A DNA stretch of 32,000 nucleotides, from contig NZ_SODD01000008.1 of assembly GCF_004365815.1 (NCBI RefSeq), positions 30,001 to 62,000 of the forward strand, in the 5' to 3' direction. The position numbers were made by a program, and so were the translations under genes. Source of the DNA: Breznakia blatticola (GTDB lineage: Bacteria > Bacillota_I > Bacilli_A > Erysipelotrichales > Erysipelotrichaceae). Positions 4,237 to 23,785 of this stretch are shown piece after piece; position 1 is the first letter of the stretch; each line of letters begins with the position of its first letter. Under the pieces are notes generated by a model, which worked only from the letters and a program-made list of their open reading frames with translations, was not told the origin of the DNA and did no database searches.

Positions 4237-5006
4237 TGCAGTCATTTAATTATCATACACATACCGTTCGTTGTGGACATGCAGTTGGAAAAGATGAAGA
4301 ATATATTCAAAATGCAATCAAATCAGGCTTTCAAGTACTTGGTTTTAGTGAACATTTAGGATATGATGGTTGGGACGATCCACAAGAGCGAATTCCGTTT
4401 CTTGAAATGGATGCCTACTTTCAACGTATGTATGAACTAAAAGAGAAGTATAAAGATCAAATTGAAATCCGTGTAGGTGTTGAGTTCGAATATTTTGAAG
4501 ATAAGAAAGAATACCTTAAGGATGTTCAATCACGTTGTGACTATATGATTGTTGGTCAACATGCAAAAAACTTTGATCACTATTATGATCATGGCTGTAG
4601 TGATGATGATGTAGATTATATGGCAGAACAAATCATTGCAGCATTAGATGCAAAATTGACTACATATGTAGCACATGTGGATTACTTTATGCTAGGAAAA
4701 GAAGATTTCACCAAACGCAATGAAGAAGCAATCGCACGTATTTGTGATGCCGTAAATCGCAATGATGCAGTCTTAGAAATCAATCTTAAAGGGATGAAGT
4801 ATGGTAAGAAGGTATATCCTACAGGAATGCAATATATGTATCCACACTATGATGTGTTTAAAATTATTGCAAACAAAGGATGTAAGGTTGTCTTTGGGTA
4901 TGATGCACATAACCCAAGTGTGCTACTCGATCGCTCTTTGGAGCAAATAGCACAAAAAGAAATGCAAGGTTTACAATTGCATTTTATTGACACATTAAAA
5001 TTATAG
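4236..5006 (+). CDS. hisJ: PHP-family histidinol-phosphatase
   Basis: N-terminal YHTHTVRCGHA PHP metal motif, 256 aa. It is last in the his string with a TAATG overlap onto hisE. Confidence 0.8.
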   Translation: MQSFNYHTHTVRCGHAVGKDEEYIQNAIKSGFQVLGFSEHLGYDGWDDPQERIPFLEMDAYFQRMYELKEKYKDQIEIRVGVEFEYFEDKKEYLKDVQSRCDYMIVGQHAKNFDHYYDHGCSDDDVDYMAEQIIAALDAKLTTYVAHVDYFMLGKEDFTKRNEEAIARICDAVNRNDAVLEINLKGMKYGKKVYPTGMQYMYPHYDVFKIIANKGCKVVFGYDAHNPSVLLDRSLEQIAQKEMQGLQLHFIDTLKL

Positions 5007-5014
5007 GAGTATGT

Positions 5015-5884
5015 ATGATTCGATTATTTGTAAGTGATTTAGATGGAACTTTATTGAATGAGGACCATGTGGTAAGTAAAGAAAATATTAAAGCGGTTGA
5101 AATGTTACGTCATCATGGCGTTTCTTTTATGCCAGCAAGTGGAAGAGACTATTTAGCTTTACAGCAAGCAATAGAACCAATTGATGTTCGACCAAAGTGT
5201 ATTGCTTTAAATGGAGCGCAGTTCTATGATAATCAAGGCAATTGTTTAGTTGTAAATCCATTAGAACGTGATGCAATTGTTGAAATTCAAGCAATTCTTG
5301 ACACATTTGGACTTTCTCCTGACTATTATGCTACAGAAGGTCGTTATGCATTTTATGAAGGTGATGATTTTATCGGTTATGTTCGTGAAAGAATTTTAAG
5401 ATTATTTCATGGAGAAAAACAAGAAAACTTAGATGAAATCATTAAAAACTTTACAAAGGACTATCATGTTGAAAGTAATCTTACAAATATTTTGGATTTA
5501 GAGATTTTAAAATTAGAAATTATTTGCACTGATGCACAAAATAAAATCGATGTACAAAAAGCACTTGAAGTAGTTCAAGGTATTACCGTAACATCGTCAC
5601 ACGAATTGAACCTTGAAGTGAATGCTTTAGCAGCAACAAAAGGACATGCAATTCAACAAGTATGTGATGTGTATGGGTATAAACCTGAAGAAGTACTCGT
5701 AGTTGGTGATGGCTTAAATGACATCTCAATGCTTGAGAAATTCGAGAATTCATATGCGATGGGACAGGCAAGTAAAACAGTTAAAAATGCTGCAAATTAT
5801 GTAGCATTAAGCAATGAAGAAGATGGAATTGCAAAACTGATCTATAAAGTATTAGAAGACAATGAAAAAGAAGCAAATCAATAA
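5015..5884 (+). CDS. Cof-type HAD-IIB phosphatase
   Basis: LFVSDLDGTLL (motif I), SGRDY, and GDGLNDISML plus NAANYV C-terminal motifs. Confidence 0.85.
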   Translation: MIRLFVSDLDGTLLNEDHVVSKENIKAVEMLRHHGVSFMPASGRDYLALQQAIEPIDVRPKCIALNGAQFYDNQGNCLVVNPLERDAIVEIQAILDTFGLSPDYYATEGRYAFYEGDDFIGYVRERILRLFHGEKQENLDEIIKNFTKDYHVESNLTNILDLEILKLEIICTDAQNKIDVQKALEVVQGITVTSSHELNLEVNALAATKGHAIQQVCDVYGYKPEEVLVVGDGLNDISMLEKFENSYAMGQASKTVKNAANYVALSNEEDGIAKLIYKVLEDNEKEANQ

Positions 5885-5910
5885 TGTGATATGATACGCT
5901 TCTTTTTTTA

Positions 5911-6789
5911 CTATTTTGCTTCCCAACGTCCGTAGATTCCACATGGCAAAACTTGATTTGTATATGTGATTGGTAATCCAATTTCACCACAAGTAACTTG
6001 ACCTTGGCCTTGTTGCTTTTTCACGGTTAAGTGTAAAACATTTTCTAGTACAGTTGCCCCTAATCCGGTTGTATACGAGTTTACTAGGAAAAATAATGCA
6101 TCTTTATCTAAGATATCTAGACAAGCAGAGATTAGTGGATACAATTGTTCTTCAATTTTCCACATTTCACCATTTGGTCCTCTTCCATAACTTGGTGGAT
6201 CCATAATAATTGCGTGATATGTACGTCCACGTCTTGCTTCGCGTTTTACGAACTTGACACAGTCTTCAACAATAAAACGAATTTTCTTATCTGTTAGATG
6301 ACTGAGTTGCATATTTTCTTTTGCCCAGTTGACCATTCCTTTTGATGCATCAACGTGAACTACTTCACTTGCGCCTGCACTGGCACATGCAAGAGTTGCT
6401 CCACCAGTATAAGCAAATAGATTTAAAACTCGAATGTCATCACGTCCACTATTTCTAATTGTATCCATCATATAGTCCCAGTTTGCTGCTTGCTCAGGGA
6501 ATAAACCTGTGTGTTTAAATCCTGTAGGGCTAACTTTGAAAGTCAGTTCTTTATATGAAATTGTCCAATGTTCAGGAACTTTCTTGATAAACTCCCAATG
6601 ACCACCGCCAGATTTTGAGCGATGATAATGCGCGTCAACTTTTCTCCACATAGAGTTTGACGTATCGACTGGCCATATAACTTGAGGATCTGGACGACGT
6701 AAAATCACGTTCTTCCAACGCTCTAATTTTTCTCCATTTCCACAATCTATACATTCATAATCTTTCCAGTTATTTGCTATTAATTTCAT
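5911..6789 (-). CDS. class I SAM-dependent methyltransferase (RlmI/YwbD-like catalytic domain)
   Basis: VLNLFAYTGGATLACA..VVHVDAS SAM-binding motif and IIMDPPSYGRG motif. I prefer the ATG at 6789 (GAGGTG upstream) over the track GTG at 6795. Confidence 0.8.
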   Translation of the reverse strand: MKLIANNWKDYECIDCGNGEKLERWKNVILRRPDPQVIWPVDTSNSMWRKVDAHYHRSKSGGGHWEFIKKVPEHWTISYKELTFKVSPTGFKHTGLFPEQAANWDYMMDTIRNSGRDDIRVLNLFAYTGGATLACASAGASEVVHVDASKGMVNWAKENMQLSHLTDKKIRFIVEDCVKFVKREARRGRTYHAIIMDPPSYGRGPNGEMWKIEEQLYPLISACLDILDKDALFFLVNSYTTGLGATVLENVLHLTVKKQQGQGQVTCGEIGLPITYTNQVLPCGIYGRWEAK

Positions 6790-12550: not shown

Positions 12551-14635
12551 ATGAGAGATTATAAATCAAGTGAAATACGTAATGTCGCCGTGTTAGGACA
12601 TAGTGGTTCAGGAAAGACTTCTATTTTAGAAGCGATGCTTTATTTTACAAAAGCAAGTGATCGTTTTGGAAAAACAAGTGAAGGAAGTTCACTTATTGAT
12701 TATGACAGTGAAGAAATTGCGAGAGGAATGTCGATTTATACATCGATTGTTCCAATTGAGTGGCAAGATTATAAAATTAACTTCTTAGATACTCCAGGAT
12801 ATCTAGATTATATTGGAGAACAAGAAGCAGCAATGGAAGTTTGTGATAATGCATTAATTATTGTGAGTGCAAAAGATAAAGTACAACCAGGAACGATTAA
12901 TGCGTGGGAAGCTGCAAAGGATAAAAAGATTCCAGCAATTTTCTTTATTAACAAACTAGATGAAGATCATACATCATTTGATGAAACATACAATGCATTG
13001 CGTGATACATTTGGGAAAAGTGTTATTCCTTTTGAGATGCCAATTTTAGAAAATGGAGAAGTAATTGGTTCAATTAACATTTTAAGAGATAAAGTGTGGT
13101 ACTTTAAAGGTGAAAAGGCTAGTCGTGATACAGCATATGATGTACCTGATGACTATCGTGAAATCGTTGATACATATAAAGCACAAATTGCAGAAACTGT
13201 AGCAATGGGTGATGATGAATTGATGGAAAAATACTTTAGTGGAGAAGAATTCACTGAAGCACAACTTACAAAAGGTGTTCGTATTGGTGTTCGTAATGGG
13301 GATATTGTTCCTGTATTTAGTGGTTCAGCAACGTTATCAGTTGGTATTGAACGTTTAATGGACCTTATTGTGAAGTATTTTCCAACGTATGGTGAGCAAG
13401 GTACAATTGTTCTGACTGACACAAAAACAAATGAATTAGTGGAACTACAAACAGCAGAAGATGAAGCGTTAAGCGCACTTGTATTTAAAACAATTGTTGA
13501 CCCATTTGTTGGTAAAATTTCGTTCTTAAAGGTGTTAAGTGGTACACTGACAAGTGATACGGCAGTATACAACCCGAAAAAAGATGAAATGGAGAAAATC
13601 TCACAAATCTTTATTATCAAAGGAAAGCACCAAACTGCTGTAGGAAAACTATTTACAGGTGATATTGGAGCGGTAAGTAAATTACAATTTACACAAACGA
13701 ATGATACACTTTGTGATAAAGGAAAACATTATGTGGCAGATCCAATACCATTTACAAAAGGACTACTTGGTCATGCAATTCGTCCAAAGACAAAAGCGGA
13801 TGATGATAAAGTAAATGGAGCACTTCAAAAAGTACTCGAAGAAGATCAAACAACATGGATCGATAACAATAAAGAAACGAAACAAATTGTTCTTTATGGA
13901 GTTGGAGAACAACACTTTGAAGTGATTGTTAATAAAATGAAAAATCGCTATAAAGTCGATGTTGAATTAAGTGATCCAAAAGTACAATATCGTGAAACGA
14001 TTAAAAAGAAAGTGGAAGCCGAAGGTCGACACAAGAAACAATCTGGTGGTCATGGACAATTCGGACATGTATTTATTGAATTCTTACCGAATCCAGATGA
14101 AGAAGAAATGGTTTTTGAGACACGAGTTGTTGGTGGAGCAGTGCCAAAAGGATATTTCCCAGCAGTTGAAACAGGGTTACGTGAAGCTATGGAAACTGGA
14201 GTACTGGCTGGATACAAAATGGTAAACACAAAAGCGGTTTTATATGATGGTAAATATCATGATGTCGATTCAAATGAATTATCATTTAAACTTGCTGCAA
14301 GTTTAGCTTATAAAGATGGTATTCCTAAAGCAAACCCAGTATTATTGGAACCAATTATGAGTTTGAGAATTTCAGTTCCTGATGAATACACAGGAAATGT
14401 AATTGGTGAAATCAATAAACGTAGAGGAATGATTATTTCGATGGATCTTGAAGGAGGAAAACAGGTAATTACAGCAACTGCACCATTAGCAGAAATACTT
14501 GACTTCCCAACGATACTACGTGCTTGTACACAAGGTCGTGGACATTATACGCAAGAATTTGAACGCTATGATGAAATACCAAATGCAATGAAAGATCAAA
14601 TCATTGATAAGGCACGAAAAGCAAAAGAAGCATAA
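12551..14635 (+). CDS. elongation factor G paralog (divergent EF-G-II-like translational GTPase)
   Basis: It has G1 GHSGSGKTS, G3 DTPGYLDY (Tyr where canonical EF-G/EF-Tu have the catalytic His) and G4 NKLD. It also has the domain IV/V signatures GGHGQFGHV and YHDVDSNELSFKLAA. 694 aa. GGGGGA RBS, 11 nt after the ankyrin stop. Confidence 0.85.
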   Translation: MRDYKSSEIRNVAVLGHSGSGKTSILEAMLYFTKASDRFGKTSEGSSLIDYDSEEIARGMSIYTSIVPIEWQDYKINFLDTPGYLDYIGEQEAAMEVCDNALIIVSAKDKVQPGTINAWEAAKDKKIPAIFFINKLDEDHTSFDETYNALRDTFGKSVIPFEMPILENGEVIGSINILRDKVWYFKGEKASRDTAYDVPDDYREIVDTYKAQIAETVAMGDDELMEKYFSGEEFTEAQLTKGVRIGVRNGDIVPVFSGSATLSVGIERLMDLIVKYFPTYGEQGTIVLTDTKTNELVELQTAEDEALSALVFKTIVDPFVGKISFLKVLSGTLTSDTAVYNPKKDEMEKISQIFIIKGKHQTAVGKLFTGDIGAVSKLQFTQTNDTLCDKGKHYVADPIPFTKGLLGHAIRPKTKADDDKVNGALQKVLEEDQTTWIDNNKETKQIVLYGVGEQHFEVIVNKMKNRYKVDVELSDPKVQYRETIKKKVEAEGRHKKQSGGHGQFGHVFIEFLPNPDEEEMVFETRVVGGAVPKGYFPAVETGLREAMETGVLAGYKMVNTKAVLYDGKYHDVDSNELSFKLAASLAYKDGIPKANPVLLEPIMSLRISVPDEYTGNVIGEINKRRGMIISMDLEGGKQVITATAPLAEILDFPTILRACTQGRGHYTQEFERYDEIPNAMKDQIIDKARKAKEA

Positions 14636-15519: not shown

Positions 15520-15596
15520 GGCGGTCGTGGTGAAGTGGTTAACACAGCGGGTTGTGGTCCCGTCATGCGTGGGTTCAAATCCCATCGGTCGCCCCA
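15520..15596 (+). tRNA. tRNA-His (anticodon GTG) with genome-encoded G-1 and encoded CCA
   Basis: I folded the cloverleaf by hand. The acceptor stem is GCGGTCG/CGGTCGC (two G-U pairs). The anticodon arm is GCGGG-TTGTGGT-CCCGT and the T arm is GTGGG-TTCAAAT-CCCAT. An extra 5' G sits opposite C73, and the 3' end is CCA. Confidence 0.9.
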
Positions 15597-15669: not shown

Positions 15670-15822
15670 ATGTATGTCATTTTTACAATCTCAAGTGCAG
15701 ATAACTACTTAAAAGCGTGCATGATGCTCAATTATTGCATCTTAACCGTAAATTCTTACCACTTAGCGTGAAAGCCTATGTTTTTTCATTGAGTTTAGTA
15801 TAATACATGTAAGGAGAATTTT

Positions 15823-16284
15823 ATGAAGATACACATTGAGTTAATTGAAGATGATAATGATGAAGAAATTGTCATTAAAACAAAAGATATAACTAAAGAA
15901 ATAAAAGATATACAAAAATTCATCCAAAATCGACTCAAAGGGGTAAAACGGTTAGTACTCTACAAGGGTGAAGAAGAATTGTATGTACCAGTGGAAAACA
16001 TTCTCTTTTTTGAAACATCAGAAGACAGCGTGTATGCCCACACGAAGAATGATGCGTATATGGTTAAACATCGACTATACGAGTTAGAAAAAGAATTACC
16101 AGAATACTTTATGCGAGTAAGTAAATCGACGATTATAAATATCACTAAAGTGATGTCGATTCAAAAGAACCTCACAAGCAGCAGTTTGGTTCGGTTCATG
16201 AATAGTGTAAAAGAAGTTTATGTTTCTAGAATGTATTACAAAGAATTGAAGCTACGTCTTCACGAAAGGAGTTATTATGAATAA
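15823..16284 (+). CDS. LytTR-domain DNA-binding protein without a receiver domain
   Basis: 153 aa. The C-terminal two-thirds match the LytTR pattern (ILFFET.....YAHT.....V...LYELE..LP..F.RVSKS.IINI..V). The acidic N-terminal 45 aa are not a REC domain. AAGGAG RBS. Confidence 0.8.
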   Translation: MKIHIELIEDDNDEEIVIKTKDITKEIKDIQKFIQNRLKGVKRLVLYKGEEELYVPVENILFFETSEDSVYAHTKNDAYMVKHRLYELEKELPEYFMRVSKSTIINITKVMSIQKNLTSSSLVRFMNSVKEVYVSRMYYKELKLRLHERSYYE

Positions 16285-16987
16285 AAAAACAAATTGGCTA
16301 TGGGGAATTGTGTTTATAGCAGTAGGGGTCATGATTGTACTTGTTCCTATGTTAGGATTATCTATCAATCTAATGCATATGATTTGGACTGTACTATTAC
16401 TGCTATGTGTTGTAAGTAATATTAAATACAGAAACTGGTTTTTAATTGTAATGCCACTATGTTTGGCAGTATGGATTAATCGTTCCTATCTACAAATTGA
16501 AGATGTCTTAAGCTTCTTTCCATTAATGGGTGCTGGGGTGTTTGTAAGTATTGGACTTTCTATTATATTCAAAGATCACTCCTATCGTTACAATCATATT
16601 CGCTATCACCGTAGTGGAAAACATGCAGATTATACAAAACAAAGCAGCCATGATGAAAGTGTGATCAATATTGATACTGCATTATCAGGAAGTGCACAAT
16701 ATATACATTCACAAAATCTACGACTAATTACAGCAGAAGTTAGTTTAGGTTCTCTTCAATTATATTTACAACAAGCAAAACTAGATCCAGAGGGAGCGAC
16801 AATCAAACTAGATGTATCACTTGCTACTCTTACTTTATATATTCCAAAAGAATGGAACACACAAGTTGATGTATCTTCTAGTTTAGGTGGTGTAGATGAA
16901 GGTTTTCATGAAAGAGACTATAATCTACCAAAACTTCTTATTACTGGAGAAGTAGCTCTTGGGAATTTGGAAATCATCTATATTTAG
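16277..16987 (+). CDS. polytopic membrane protein with a beta-rich C-terminal domain reminiscent of LiaF/DUF2154
   Basis: About four N-terminal TM helices. The C-terminal half has repeated short strand-like segments (LITAEVSLGSLQLYL, IKLDVSLATLTLYI, LLITGEVALGNLEIIYI). It overlaps the LytTR gene by 8 nt. The family assignment is tentative. Confidence 0.6.
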   Translation: MNKKTNWLWGIVFIAVGVMIVLVPMLGLSINLMHMIWTVLLLLCVVSNIKYRNWFLIVMPLCLAVWINRSYLQIEDVLSFFPLMGAGVFVSIGLSIIFKDHSYRYNHIRYHRSGKHADYTKQSSHDESVINIDTALSGSAQYIHSQNLRLITAEVSLGSLQLYLQQAKLDPEGATIKLDVSLATLTLYIPKEWNTQVDVSSSLGGVDEGFHERDYNLPKLLITGEVALGNLEIIYI

Positions 16988-17037
16988 GTGATTTTTTCTT
17001 TATTATAATATAATCCTACTAAACGTGTAGGAAATGC

Positions 17038-17065
17038 TTGACATTGTTTTCTTTTATGGTATTAT
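17038..17065 (+). promoter_or_regulatory. strong promoter (TTGACA-16-TGgTATTAT)
   Basis: Consensus -35 plus an extended -10. No protein-coding gene follows it on the + strand. Confidence 0.65.
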
Positions 17066-17071
17066 ATAGAC

Positions 17072-17284
17072 AGGATAGGAAAGGTATACATACCAAAATG
17101 TTCACCAGGGAAGGGTGAACAAAGTAATATCTTATTTTCCTACTAGGAAGGTAGGAAATGTCGAGTTTTTGTCTAAAATTCATTGTTATCCCCCCAAAAC
17201 ATTAATTTTGACATGCGCTTTGTAGGAAGGGCGTCTACTCAAAATAAAAAGCAATCATCAACACGCATGATTGCTTTTTATTTT
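17072..17284 (+). ncRNA. candidate ~210-nt purine-motif-rich small RNA
   Basis: It is bounded by the promoter above and a strong terminator (AGCAATCAT-caacacgc-ATGATTGCT + TTTTTATTTT, 17250-17284). Internal hairpins are GTTCACC-agggaag-GGTGAAC (17100-17120) and CCTAC-taggaag-GTAGG (17139-17155), with GGA in the loops. I recognise no known family. Confidence 0.4.
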
Positions 17285-17321
17285 CAATTTATTTACATTA
17301 ATGAAAAAATTCAAATTAATA

Positions 17322-17350
17322 TTTACATTTCTTTGACCTATTGCTATAAT
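17322..17350 (+). promoter_or_regulatory. promoter TTTACA-17-TATAAT
   Basis: Consensus spacing and a perfect -10. No + strand coding gene lies downstream. Confidence 0.6.
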
Positions 17351-17356
17351 GAACTA

Positions 17357-17442
17357 AGTAAAACGAGGTTAAATATCCCTTTCCTATCTTCCTACCTTGT
17401 TTTACATCCTAATTAATAAAGCCCAATTTAAGGGCTTTTTTT
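17357..17442 (+). ncRNA. candidate ~85-nt pyrimidine-rich small RNA
   Basis: It runs from the promoter above to the bidirectional terminator AAAGCCC-aatttaa-GGGCTTT (17418-17442). It contains CCCTTTCCTATCTTCCTACCTT, which is complementary to 17074-17084 and 17148-17157 of the upstream candidate RNA. Confidence 0.35.
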
Positions 17443-17848
17443 ATGTTCTCTTTGAAAATTTTGTTTTACACTTTGGACAAGTGATTTCAATTTTACCTTT
17501 TCCACTAGGCACACGTACAACTTGTTTGCACTTAGGACATTTGTAGTACTTATGACTCTTATCTTCAAATCTGCGTTTTGTGCGTCTAAAAGGAGCACGG
17601 ATTTTATACCACATTCCTAGAAACTTATTGTTTTCAATACGACGGCGATATACTTTACGTGAGAAGAAACGAAACCAGAAAATGATAAGCGGAATCCACG
17701 TTATTGTGGCAGTAATCCAATTACTACCCACAAATAATGCCATTACAATGTTGAAGACTACTGCAAATGCCAACAAGAAAGTGTTCAGTTGGTCATTTCC
17801 ATAACGTCCTTGCATAAATTGATATAACTTGTATTTTAATTTATTCAT
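17441..17848 (-). CDS. membrane protein with C-terminal zinc ribbon
   Basis: Two TM helices are followed by a basic linker and the CPKC...CPKC pair. 135 aa. Confidence 0.75.
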   Translation of the reverse strand: MNKLKYKLYQFMQGRYGNDQLNTFLLAFAVVFNIVMALFVGSNWITATITWIPLIIFWFRFFSRKVYRRRIENNKFLGMWYKIRAPFRRTKRRFEDKSHKYYKCPKCKQVVRVPSGKGKIEITCPKCKTKFSKRT

Positions 17849-23522: not shown

Positions 23523-23785
23523 AATACAAAACAAATACGATGAAAAGAAGAGTAGAGTTTCAAAAGTCTTCATAGAGAGTCCTGGTTGGTGAAAAAGGAT
23601 AAGATAAGTCGAACTTGAATATGGTCTTGGAGTAGTACAGTTGAGAGCTTGCTTTAGATTGTACCGTGTGCACCCGTTAACGTGCTAGAGTTTGATAGAA
23701 CTTGAAGAGGTTATTGTAGTGATGCAATAATGAACTAAGGTGGTAACACGATGACATTCGTCCTTATGGGTGAATGTTTTTTTTA
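23523..23785 (+). promoter_or_regulatory. T-box riboswitch leader, probable Met specifier (AUG at 23621-23623)
   Basis: It has AGAGAGTCCTGGTTGGTGAAA (AG bulge/distal loop region) and the specifier-loop-like GAATATGG. The T-box sequence AAGGTGGTAACACG (23737-23750) is present. A terminator with a 10-bp stem (23754-23777) and a T run follows. The Met-transporter operon lies downstream. Confidence 0.8.

Follow-up and report, generated by a model that had tools for sequence, protein, structure and literature searches.

Which products does a non-coding interval with two near-consensus promoters encode in Breznakia, an insect-gut bacterium? The window analysed here, a 32-kb stretch of Breznakia blatticola DNA, contains such an interval at positions 16988-17440, immediately following a LytTR/LiaF-TM regulatory system operon (15823..16987, plus strand). 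A preliminary description of this DNA had proposed two separate non-coding transcription units with no credible ORF in either, and this proposal held: each unit has a near-consensus promoter and a terminator, and none of the three ORFs in the gap (54 aa on the minus strand; 36 and 77 aa on the plus strand) has a counterpart in the MTC7 homologue. A small-protein reading was rejected, given that the 6-8 aa ORF after AGGAAAGG lacks a start codon in loci L002 and L003 and that the ORFs of 36-77 aa are unconserved. The region most likely encodes two non-coding RNAs, namely a multi-copy sRNA (RNA2) and a neighbour carrying complementary sites (RNA1). All the evidence presented here is computational, and both transcripts are predictions. 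The genes and transcripts concerned are as follows.

15823-16284, plus strand: gene for a stand-alone LytTR DNA-binding protein (Pfam LytTR match)
16277-16987, plus strand: gene for a LiaF-TM membrane protein (Pfam LiaF-TM match)
17072..17290, plus strand: RNA1, predicted non-coding RNA of ~215 nt, with the 5' end placed from the position of the -10
17356..17446, plus strand: RNA2, predicted sRNA of ~90 nt (promoter, terminator, conserved fold)

RNA1 is located directly 3' of the LytTR/LiaF-TM operon in all four lineages (the window, MTC7, Breznakia sp. PF5-3 and B. pachnodae). The RNA1 and RNA2 genes adjoin in three of them, the exception being B. pachnodae, where the RNA2 orthologue is found away from RNA1.

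The second unit had been described as a promoter and a short transcript ending in a bidirectional terminator. The promoter, the predicted transcript of ~90 nt and the terminator were all recovered, and only the bidirectionality was not borne out, because the scan flagged the plus strand alone. The parts of RNA2 are listed below.

17322..17350, plus strand: RNA2 promoter, TTTACA-17-TGcTATAAT (11/12 consensus, extended -10)
17358-17369 and 17394-17405, plus strand: arms of the 12-bp RNA2 stem
17370-17393, plus strand: 24-nt RNA2 loop, UAAAUAUCCCUUUCCUAUCUUCCU
17406-17417, plus strand: single-stranded AUCCUAAUUAAU, 3' of the stem
17418-17438, plus strand: RNA2 terminator, followed by a U tract

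The predicted fold of RNA2 has a z-score of -4.9, and about 67 nt of it are 100% identical to MTC7, compared with 74% identity for the flanking protein. The promoter hexamers are kept in MTC7, PF5-3 and B. pachnodae, with a diverged spacer. Ten copies of RNA2 were found in five lineages, this window included, each with its own promoter and terminator, and Breznakia and MTC7 carry between one and four copies per genome (four in PF5-3 and two each in B. pachnodae and MTC7). The 19-nt core of the loop, AUAUCCCUUUCCUAUCUUCCU, is identical in 10/10 copies, and CCUAUCUUCC is likewise a segment of this loop. Pairing holds in 99.1% of the cells of the stem, with compensatory changes at 5 of the 12 pairs; the covariation score was reached by none of 500 shuffles, and slid registers came nowhere near the observed values. 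A covariance model of the family gives the copy in this window 82 bits. With the search patterns used, the core was found in Breznakia and MTC7 only. None of the 24 matches of a core 18-mer to JGI metagenome contigs was RNA2-like, and the matches outside Erysipelotrichaceae in the genome scan were rejected, as they look like chance or unrelated conserved elements. Judged from these comparisons, RNA2 is a genuine structured RNA family, previously undescribed.

The promoter and terminator reported for the first unit were also confirmed, the predicted transcript being RNA1. Its elements are the following.

17038..17065, plus strand: RNA1 promoter, TTGACA-16-TGgTATTAT (11/12 consensus, extended -10)
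17071..17089, plus strand: site 1, CAGGAUAGGAAAGGUAUAC, complementary to the RNA2 loop over 13 bp + 3 bp (-19.8 kcal/mol)
17100..17120, plus strand: hairpin GUUCACC-AGGGAAG-GGUGAAC, with site 2 at 17106-17116 (duplex -14.7 kcal/mol)
17137..17160, plus strand: IR2, UUCCUAC-UAGGAAG-GUAGGAAAUG, an internal copy of the inverted repeat IR1 (see below), with site 3 at 17144-17159 (15-bp duplex, -22.3 kcal/mol, or -20.5 with a shorter loop probe)
17215..17234, plus strand: hairpin GCGCUUUGUAGGAAGGGCGU, with site 4 at 17221-17232 (duplex -14.0 kcal/mol)
17241..17290 (17241-17284 in the scan), plus strand: RNA1 intrinsic terminator, an 18-bp stem followed by a U-rich tail

RNA1 has a fold z-score of -5.6 against shuffles and is 80% identical to its MTC7 homologue. 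Both promoter hexamers are kept there, with a diverged spacer, and the terminator stem has a different sequence with its pairing kept. The GGA sites are better conserved than their surroundings, and the earlier suggestion that the GGA-type motifs are the functional, conserved part of this unit is supported. Site 1 is invariant between Breznakia and MTC7. The loop of the site 2 hairpin is also invariant, its stem pairing is kept in strain variants via G-U pairs, and the homologous hairpin of PF5-3 and B. pachnodae reads UCCACC..GGUGGA. At site 4, MTC7 keeps GGGAAG in the loop, with U-G pairs of the stem changed to U-A and a weaker duplex (-10.6 kcal/mol). Of the two GGA-loop hairpins previously described, both are present (17100-17120 and CCUAC-UAGGAAG-GUAGG at 17139-17155), but the UAGGAAG loop of the latter is not conserved, UAUAAAA taking its place in six other Breznakia contigs and in MTC7. 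Site 3, with its 15-bp match to the RNA2 loop, therefore owes its existence to three clustered substitutions, UAUAAAA to UAGGAAG. In total, RNA1 has four complementary sites in this window, one of them strain-specific and two or three common to MTC7 (two strong, the third weakly kept), these being the only sites in MTC7.

The TTCCTA copies of the second unit had been counted as further instances of the motif found in the first. They belong instead to its complementary partner: the RNA2 loop CCCUUUCCUAUCUUCCU can form 9-15 bp with the GGA sites of RNA1, with duplex energies that reach -27 kcal/mol in PF5-3. When both strands of the 32-kb window were searched, two of the three top-ranking partners of the loop, self matches aside, fell within RNA1. 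A purine-rich array and a pyrimidine-rich loop will show some pairing from composition alone, for which the loop shuffle is the single control. Summed pairing of the true loop exceeded that of 100/100 composition-matched loop shuffles in the window, PF5-3 and B. pachnodae, and of 93/100 in MTC7, a weak test in which 7/100 shuffles were as good. The extended complementarity of RNA1 to the conserved RNA2 seed thus exceeds composition in three of four lineages. Whole-transcript RNAduplex was discarded in favour of windowed scans, since it gave unrealistically long duplexes and 61 of 500 shuffles did as well.

These results bear on whether the two RNAs interact at all. They might be independent, with a complementarity that is a by-product, either of an anti-Shine-Dalgarno-like sequence facing a Shine-Dalgarno-like purine sequence or of an origin by inverted duplication. 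Judging from sequence, the RNA2 loop CCCUUUCCUA does resemble the 16S rRNA 3' end and the RNA1 sites look like weak Shine-Dalgarno sequences; besides, a conserved C-rich stretch of RNA1 (17190-17195) could be a seed of its own. The net dimer stabilization obtained by cofolding is small as well: RNAcofold of RNA1 with RNA2 yields ~-3 kcal/mol for real and shuffled loops, in a model that excludes pseudoknots and loop-loop kissing contacts, and the sites of the short-form RNA1 (window and MTC7) are partly buried in its own structure. We nevertheless regard independence as unlikely, given how far the true loop outpairs its shuffles, that the complementary sites are the best-conserved parts of RNA1, and that sites have been gained repeatedly, as seen in the strain-specific site here and the 16-22 sites of relatives. 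RNA1 and RNA2 also share one small clade, to which both are confined with the search patterns used, and their genes adjoin in three lineages. The RNA2 loop core is invariant, and therefore there is no co-variation between the sRNA and the sponge sites to compare.

The conservation in close relatives on which the preliminary description had made its claim depend was found for both units, with RNA1 homologues in MTC7, PF5-3 and B. pachnodae, in addition to the RNA2 copies described above. At the more distant LytTR/LiaF-TM loci (L055-L057), RNA1 is absent. The 5' modules align across all RNA1 homologues, including those of PF5-3 and B. pachnodae, which are expanded to 0.5-1 kb and carry 16 and 22 predicted RNA2-loop sites, respectively. 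PF5-3 has 28 GGAA[AG] motifs per 300 nt, and its locus consists of a promoter, 5.8 tandem copies of a 41-nt repeat and a terminator; the B. pachnodae array is irregular. The expanded loci of both contain no ORF longer than 47 aa, and structure prediction leaves the array region unpaired, as a purine tract with little structure. Most array sites are bipartite, of the form GGAAG-N1-4-GGAAAGG. The complement of the loop, GGAAG-AUA-GGAAAGG, has its two parts in the same order and at roughly the same spacing, and most long-form sites deviate from the perfect complement in the central spacer, where the change amounts to 1-3 nt.

The preliminary description had likened the first unit to the protein-sponging CsrB and RsmZ, and RNA1 could indeed be a sponge of a GGA-binding regulator, CsrA or an analogue, with RNA2 unrelated or competing for the sites. 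GGA in the window RNA1 occurs at the 5' end and in two or three hairpin loops, one of them strain-specific. The recurrent 7-nt (U/A)(A/G)GGAAG loops in short hairpins (AGGGAAG at 17107-17113, UAGGAAG at 17144-17150 and another UAGGAAG in an extra module of locus L061) would suit such a protein, and the long forms have at least 30 GGA motifs, a count like that of CsrB. A requirement for GGA only would not, however, account for bipartite array sites that mirror the order and spacing of the RNA2 loop, and for most array motifs the context is unstructured RNA made of purines only, not a hairpin loop. The CsrB, CsrC, RsmX, RsmY, RsmZ and other Rfam models gave no match to RNA1 even at E <= 10. The Rfam search that had been proposed as a check, run on the window and homologous loci at the gathering threshold and at E <= 10, returned only noise, tRNAs and a T-box, and no known family explains the region. 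The 32-kb window contains no csrA gene. Moreover, CsrA of Firmicutes is known to be antagonized by FliW and not by sRNAs, which we also count against a protein partner. Because the array motif is the complement of the loop, and more than GGA alone, an RNA:RNA sponge is favoured over one of the CsrB/RsmZ type, which we consider an improbable, though not negligible, explanation and less likely than a base-pairing sponge. The sponge idea was thus right in kind, with RNA rather than protein as the favoured partner.

Our preferred reading, to which we assign a probability of about 60% from the sequence comparisons, makes RNA1 a base-pairing sponge of the RNA2-family sRNAs, the two forming a trans-acting pair of non-coding RNAs that would work together. 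Each RNA2 sibling would be made from its own sigma-70-type promoter and would present a pyrimidine-rich loop of ~24 nt closed by the 12-bp stem. By analogy with CU-rich sRNAs of Firmicutes, the probable partners of this loop are ribosome-binding regions of mRNAs that are rich in purines. RNA1 would bind and titrate the siblings, by sequestration or coupled degradation, and the expanded arrays of PF5-3 and B. pachnodae have the look expected of a high-capacity sponge. The comparisons show the sequence with its conservation, covariation, complementarity and expansion, whereas in this scheme we infer that the RNAs are transcribed and pair in vivo, which of them controls the other and what induces RNA1. 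In a target scan of ~110 kb of fetched DNA, the weak candidates for RNA2 targets fall at two ribosome-binding sites (locus L024, 1177-1198, and locus L025, 1419-1437); a convincing mRNA target was found neither in the window nor in these ~110 kb of related loci.

The layout in PF5-3, with promoter, tandem repeats and terminator, is also that of a ToxI-like array, and the tandem-repeat RNA of the relatives could in principle be the antitoxin of a type III toxin-antitoxin system. No same-strand toxin gene was found downstream, where the neighbour is a convergent DEDDh exonuclease gene or, 3' of RNA1 in this window, RNA2 and then a convergent zinc-ribbon gene. PADLOC reported no ToxN-like match, the short form of RNA1 in this window has no tandem repeat, and the B. 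pachnodae array is irregular. With no toxin gene found, we consider this possibility close to refuted.

Sponge RNAs directed against base-pairing sRNAs have only recently entered the picture of bacterial regulation; to our knowledge, those described carry one or a few sites, as QrrX and CrfA do, and few examples come from Gram-positive bacteria. If the reading as a base-pairing sponge is right, RNA1 would, by analogy, join this group, with RosA, QrrX and CrfA as precedents. The QrrX (Vibrio) and CrfA (Caulobacter) sponges inactivate sibling sRNA families, Qrr1-4 and SisA-D, respectively, and resemble RNA1 in being separately transcribed RNAs complementary to a seed common to paralogous sRNAs (PMC12559287). 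They are Hfq-dependent systems of Gram-negative bacteria, whereas RNA1 is a predicted RNA of Erysipelotrichaceae. It shares no sequence similarity with them, and its predicted sites number from 2-4 up to ~22 and are partly in tandem. For Erysipelotrichaceae, we know of no RNA chaperone. In Bacillus subtilis, RosA sponges RoxS and FsrA and is thus a base-pairing sRNA sponge in a Firmicute, the sponge being purine/G-rich and the sRNA seeds it pairs with C-rich, as would be the case here (PMC8216469). RosA differs in having two sites for single-copy sRNAs and no tandem array, and it is not homologous to RNA1.

Other resemblances are more partial. Like RNA1, the CsrB, RsmY and RsmZ RNAs repeat the GGA motif many times, in part in hairpin loops, and have a copy number that varies by species and modular repeats; the RNA1 motif is longer, bipartite and complementary to a neighbouring sRNA, in an array that is mostly single-stranded. 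RNA2, being short and multi-copy with an unpaired pyrimidine-rich seed, recalls LhrC1-5 of Listeria, the csRNAs of Streptococcus and RsaE/RoxS, which are Firmicute sRNAs with CU- or C-rich seeds. These have several short UCCC motifs, whereas RNA2 has a single loop of ~24 nt with the invariant 19-nt core, and there is no sequence or model match between them; in particular, the window contains no Rfam match to RsaE/RoxS. In eukaryotes, CDR1as/ciRS-7 and the plant IPS1 likewise offer a single small RNA numerous imperfect sites on one transcript, often bulged at the centre, although in another domain of life and with other machinery, which makes the comparison an analogy only.

More tentatively, and with rather less conviction than we give the sponge reading itself, we suggest that a dedicated bacterial transcript may act here as a high-capacity competing endogenous RNA, with sites ranging from 2-4 up to ~22, partly in tandem, and differing in number between species and strains in a way that would tune how much sRNA it can titrate. 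Eukaryotic miRNA sponges such as CDR1as would then have a prokaryotic equivalent, and stoichiometric titration of sRNAs in bacteria would reach the scale at which CsrB acts on proteins or circular RNAs on miRNAs. Such a transcript could also account for the global switch-off of an sRNA family in a Firmicute lineage without a known CsrB-type RNA, and it would mean that sponge capacity evolves fast, by repeat expansion, module duplication and site-creating point mutations. RNA1 and RNA2 would be two RNA families new to Rfam and, in culturable Breznakia, would offer a tractable RNA pair for studying the sRNA biology of the almost unexplored Erysipelotrichaceae. A non-exhaustive literature search retrieved no earlier description of sRNAs from Erysipelotrichaceae or of tandem-array sRNA sponges in bacteria.

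The preliminary description had also emphasized a cluster of eight TAGGAA hexamers or their complements within 367 bp, with DNA operators as an alternative explanation. The count is correct (between 17028 and 17394), the expectation being ~0.16 per 367 bp (13.6 per 32 kb in window shuffles) and the Poisson probability of at least eight roughly 1e-10, with the background rate taken outside the region. Both copies of the repeated unit CCTACTA-N5-GTAGGAAATG were likewise found, at 17015-17036 and 17139-17160, spaced by 124 bp.

17028, 17076, 17144, 17152 and 17223, plus strand: TAGGAA hexamers (sequence count)
17137, 17381 and 17389, minus strand: TAGGAA hexamers (sequence count)
17012..17036, plus strand: IR1, upstream element AATCCTACTAAACGTGTAGGAAATG, with one TAGGAA hexamer, 24 nt upstream of the RNA1 -35

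Under this alternative, a transcription factor such as the adjacent LytTR protein would bind the hexamers and control both promoters. For one element the idea has some appeal: AATTCCTACTAAA..TAGG keeps a constant distance of 24-26 nt from the -35, on its upstream side, in all RNA1 promoter modules of the four lineages (in the relatives, those of MTC7 and PF5-3 and both modules of B. pachnodae), recurs 124-170 bp downstream and is confined to RNA1 loci among 57 fetched loci. It also delimits a module of 167 nt that a sister strain of PF5-3 has and PF5-3 itself lacks, and it resembles the LytTR repeat TCCTAGTAA of S. mutans SMU_294 (PMC6193735, Table 2). Only three of the eight hexamers are within this element, however, the other five being in transcribed sequence conserved as RNA, namely the covarying stem with its invariant loop core and RNA1 sites 1 and 4. 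An LRS target promoter has two 9-bp direct repeats 11-13 bp apart that end 4-11 bp upstream of the -35 (PMC6193735). The promoter of the operon itself has the canonical direct repeats GCATCTTAA-12 bp-ACCACTTAG at 15737-15766, whereas the RNA1 and RNA2 promoters lack a second 9-bp repeat at 12-bp spacing, and the TCCTACTAA element at RNA1 accordingly does not have the form of an LRS target promoter. The LytTR protein's own repeat ACCACTTAG, kept in four species, differs in sequence and does not occur in the region, with no similar repeats upstream of RNA1 or RNA2; we therefore rejected the adjacent LytTR regulator as a controller of RNA1, this conserved repeat occurring only at its own operon promoter. 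An operator role is thus set aside for most of the hexamers, and as an explanation of the whole cluster it is very doubtful; for AATTCCTACTAAA..TAGG alone it is possible and could coexist with RNA1 acting as a base-pairing sponge, IR1 being a candidate operator or module boundary. The LytTR/LiaF-TM sensory operon appears linked to RNA1 by position, as judged from the four lineages. The gene for QrrX similarly adjoins a regulator gene, that of QrrT, and a sponge gene next to a regulator would thus be common to both systems.

The gap at 16988-17440 of the window is intergenic, lying between the stop of a LiaF-TM gene and the stop of a convergent zinc-ribbon gene. It holds two predicted transcription units, the putative non-coding RNA1 (~17072-17290, +) and the putative sRNA RNA2 (~17356-17446, +), arranged as follows.

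Features of the gap and its flanks
15823-16284, +, stand-alone LytTR DNA-binding protein gene, preceding the LiaF-TM gene
16277-16987, +, LiaF-TM membrane protein gene, upstream flank
17038-17065, +, RNA1 promoter, consensus match 11/12, extended -10
17241-17284, +, RNA1 terminator (terminator scan)
17322-17350, +, RNA2 promoter, consensus match 11/12, extended -10
17418-17438, +, RNA2 terminator (terminator scan)
17441-17848, -, convergent membrane and zinc-ribbon gene, 135 aa, downstream flank

The two consensus promoter-terminator units of the preliminary description were thus recovered, with both promoters matching at 11/12 positions with an extended -10 and both terminators on the + strand. 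Its eight TAGGAA/TTCCTA hexamers were likewise counted, between 17028 and 17394, where window shuffles predict ~0.16, and its view that no credible ORF is present holds, as the gap ORFs (54, 36 and 77 aa) lack an equivalent in the nearest other genus-level relative. Rfam models gave no match to the gap at the gathering threshold, and none at E <= 10.

RNA2 is, as judged from its sequence, a member of a new family of sibling sRNAs. Its ~67 nt from just past the -10 up to the terminator are 100% identical between the window and Erysipelotrichaceae bacterium MTC7, against 74% identity for the flanking LiaF-TM protein; the promoter spacer has fully diverged, and the terminator stem has changed in sequence with its pairing kept. 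In the predicted fold (z = -4.9), a 12-bp stem closes the 24-nt loop UAAAUAUCCCUUUCCUAUCUUCCU, and a short single-stranded stretch leads on to the terminator. When the loop core CCCTTTCCTATCTTCCTA was scanned against one genome per prokaryotic species, RNA2-like copies were found only in the Breznakia/MTC7 clade, where a genome can hold several: Breznakia sp. PF5-3 has four, MTC7 and B. pachnodae have two each, and a Breznakia MAG has one. Scanning metagenomes added no members to the family, and a covariance model of the family identifies exactly one copy in the window. Promoter and terminator are separate for every copy, and the terminators are unrelated to one another. The alignment of the ten copies shows no change in the 19-nt loop core, so that co-variation between sRNA and proposed sponge cannot show. 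In the stem, 99.1% of cells are paired and both sides have changed in 5 of the 12 pairs (for example, AAAACGAGGU/ACCUUGUUUU versus AAAGUGAAGU/ACUUCACUUU), a covariation approached by 0 of 500 shuffles and by no slid register, and drawn from ten copies, the family being restricted to a small clade.

The 18-mer CCCTTTCCTATCTTCCTA also lies within an unrelated element of Thermodesulfobacteriota MAGs and metagenome contigs (L013, L020, L022, L030, L035, L039, L041, L047 and L048), conserved over >150 nt in the context tcattcaaagggaatttatcac... Just 3' of the RNA2 orthologue, PF5-3 (L025 ~2840-2945) and B. pachnodae (L016 ~1990-2075) carry a conserved hairpin-rich stretch without an Rfam match (cgacatacaa..ttgtatgtcg, gatgtttgat..atcaaacatc and tggctat..tagcca), which may represent a further RNA element or a group of terminators.

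The window's LytTR protein is 100% identical to that of Breznakia blatticola, and its LiaF-TM protein is 100% identical to one from 'unclassified Breznakia', which places the window in Breznakia, at or near B. blatticola. Breznakia are Erysipelotrichaceae of the insect gut. RNA1 was compared across syntenic loci of six other Breznakia contigs (L001-L006), 95-96% identical to the window across RNA1, MTC7 (L007) and a close relative (L058), PF5-3 (L025/L060) and a sister strain (L061), and B. pachnodae (L052-L054). These comparisons indicate that RNA1 is non-coding and conserved, and that what is conserved in it is complementary to the RNA2 loop. Its fold beats shuffles (z = -5.6), and it is ~80% identical to the MTC7 homologue. 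Conservation is patchy and peaks in segments such as the 5' end ACAGGAUAGGAAAGGU and the GUUCACC-AGGGAAG-GGUGAAC hairpin; the loop GGAAG of the last hairpin is also preserved. A windowed search of RNA1 for duplexes with the RNA2 loop predicted four sites, numbered 5' to 3'.

Predicted pairing sites of RNA1 with the RNA2 loop
17071-17089, +, site 1, -19.8 kcal/mol, 13 bp plus 3 bp
17106-17116, +, site 2, -14.7 kcal/mol
17144-17159, +, site 3, -20.5 to -22.3 kcal/mol, 15 bp
17221-17232, +, site 4, -14.0 kcal/mol

The summed energy of these sites, few and partly structured in the short RNA1 of the window, beats 100 of 100 composition-matched shuffles of the RNA2 loop. When both strands of the 32-kb window are ranked as partners for the loop, its own antisense set aside, RNA1 holds two of the top three. 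The eight hexamers can all be accounted for by RNA1 sites, a repeated CCTACTA..GTAGG element and the RNA2 loop: the RNA1 strand carries five as TAGGAA, within sites 1, 3 and 4 and the right arms of both element copies, one is the left arm of the internal copy, and two are TTCCTA copies within the RNA2 loop. The UAGGAAG hairpin loop at 17144-17150 singled out in the preliminary description is present in the window, but it is strain-specific, reading UAUAAAA in the other Breznakia contigs and MTC7. Three clustered substitutions at 17143-17150 (TATAAAA to TAGGAAG), unique to the window in the comparison with L001-L007, create the extra 15-bp match to the RNA2 loop, and the sequence reads as a site gained in this strain. 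Since the octamer TAGGAAGG at these positions recurs identically at 17222-17229, site 3 was possibly gained by a conversion-like event from that copy.

The decisive comparative observation, in terms of sequence and predicted pairing, is the expansion of the RNA1 homologues in PF5-3 and B. pachnodae, where a gene-free unit of ~0.55 kb and ~1 kb, respectively, occupies RNA1's position immediately 3' of the LytTR/LiaF-TM operon. The 5' module aligns part by part with RNA1 of the window (upstream element, promoter, GGA-containing 5' end, UCCACC..GGUGGA hairpin and second element copy), and the body is a GGA-rich site array, predicted to be single-stranded, with no ORF >47 aa in either array; promoter and terminator orientation make the GGA strand the RNA strand. 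The PF5-3 array has 28 GGAA[AG] motifs per 300 nt and a 41-nt tandem repeat UAAUAAAGGAAGAAGGAAAGGGAAAAAGGAAGUUGGAAAGG in 5.8 copies, and that of B. pachnodae is irregular, with units such as UAGGAAGUAGGAAAGGGU, UGGAAGAUUGGAAAGGA and UAGGAAGUUAGGAAAGGU. Most array sites have the bipartite form GGAAG-N1-4-GGAAAGG and the complement of the RNA2 loop is GGAAG-AUA-GGAAAGG(GAUAU), so the arrays reproduce the order and approximate spacing of the loop halves, usually with a small central bulge. At -10 kcal/mol or below, PF5-3 has 16 predicted sites and B. pachnodae has 22, each array beating 100 of 100 loop shuffles. That the complementarity has no functional meaning is quite unlikely, being opposed by the shuffle controls, the selective conservation and repeated gain of sites, and the common phylogenetic distribution of RNA1 and RNA2.

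Considering these data, we propose, with a probability of roughly 0.6 and on a wholly computational basis, that RNA1 acts as a decoy, or sponge, titrating RNA2-family sRNAs with multiple copies of a target-like sequence. The sRNAs would display a pyrimidine-rich seed with an invariant core in a large loop. As in Firmicute sRNAs with CU- or C-rich seeds, such as LhrC, csRNAs and RoxS, this seed probably pairs with purine-rich ribosome-binding regions. Short RNA1 forms would offer 2-4 sites, some shown in 7-nt hairpin loops suiting loop-loop initiation, UAGGAAG and the CUUCCUA of the RNA2 loop being exactly complementary, and long forms would act as open, multi-site platforms. The CsrB-like protein sponge suggested earlier is consistent with the GGA loops and the motif count, but it finds no Csr/Rsm model match and leaves unexplained why the sites mirror the bipartite complement of a neighbouring sRNA; we consider it rather unlikely. 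A type III toxin-antitoxin array is scarcely credible, given that a toxin gene is absent. Sponging of a sibling sRNA family by RNA1 would follow the logic of QrrX and CrfA, which sponge Qrr1-4 and SisA-D (PMC12559287), and of the B. subtilis sponge RosA (PMC8216469). RNA1 and RNA2 differ from these systems in host lineage and share no sequence or model similarity with them, and RNA1 also differs in site number and tandem organisation, for which a non-exhaustive literature search found no bacterial precedent. In site number and tandem organisation it resembles CsrB, although CsrB sponges a protein, or eukaryotic miRNA sponges.

Reading the hexamers as DNA operators would cover the CCTACTA element at most, and is very unlikely. 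The element itself could function either as an upstream promoter element or as an operator. AATTCCTACTAAA..TAGG lies 24-26 nt 5' of the -35 in every RNA1 promoter module, B. pachnodae having two modules, and a further copy is located 3' of the UCCACC hairpin. PF5-3 and its sister strain (L060 and L061) differ solely by one extra complete 167-nt module in the latter (~4835-5001), with 21-nt direct repeats at its borders, comprising, in order, an element copy, a promoter, a GUAGA-UAGGAAG-UCUAC hairpin and an AUCCACC..GGUGGA hairpin. The module is bounded by the element, which thus marks module boundaries, and the sequence comparison shows a locus evolving through gain and loss of whole modules.

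In the promoter of the LytTR/LiaF-TM operon, canonical direct repeats of the LytTR-system type, GCATCTTAA-12 bp-ACCACTTAG (15737-15766), stop 9 bp 5' of a weak -35, with the -10 TATAAT at 15799-15804. Repeats and architecture are conserved in four lineages (window, MTC7, PF5-3 and B. pachnodae) and fit the architecture described for LytTR systems (PMC6193735). Such repeats at the operon's own promoter imply that the system regulates itself positively, a behaviour described for HdrRM/BrsRM of S. mutans (PMC6193735). No GCATCTTAA/ACCACTTAG-type repeat was found near RNA1 or RNA2, and, judging by sequence, the CCTACTA..GTAGG element is not where the adjacent LytTR protein binds.

The more distant relatives L055-L057 carry the LytTR operon with no gap and no RNA1. 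In RNA1-less relatives, a DEDDh (RNase T-like) exonuclease gene directly adjoins the operon, an arrangement that suggests insertion of RNA1 between them; the gene is convergent with long RNA1 in PF5-3 (L025 3352-3936) and B. pachnodae (L052 6365-6949). Within the long RNA1 of the latter (L052 ~5660-6300), a ~185-nt higher-order repeat occurs in ~4 copies, each with a long hairpin (GGAUAAACUAGAU...AUCUAAUUUAUCC) bearing GAAGAUAGG near its apex, followed by a bipartite GGAAG..GGAAAGG run. The left flank of the LytTR operon varies between strains, with an EF-G-family GTPase gene (12551-14635) and a single tRNA gene (15521-15593) just upstream in the window, and phage integrase, holin and amidase genes instead in the Breznakia contig L002. 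The window also contains a T-box leader (118.6 bits; 23531-23768, +), overlapping the 5' end of an ORF starting at 23751.
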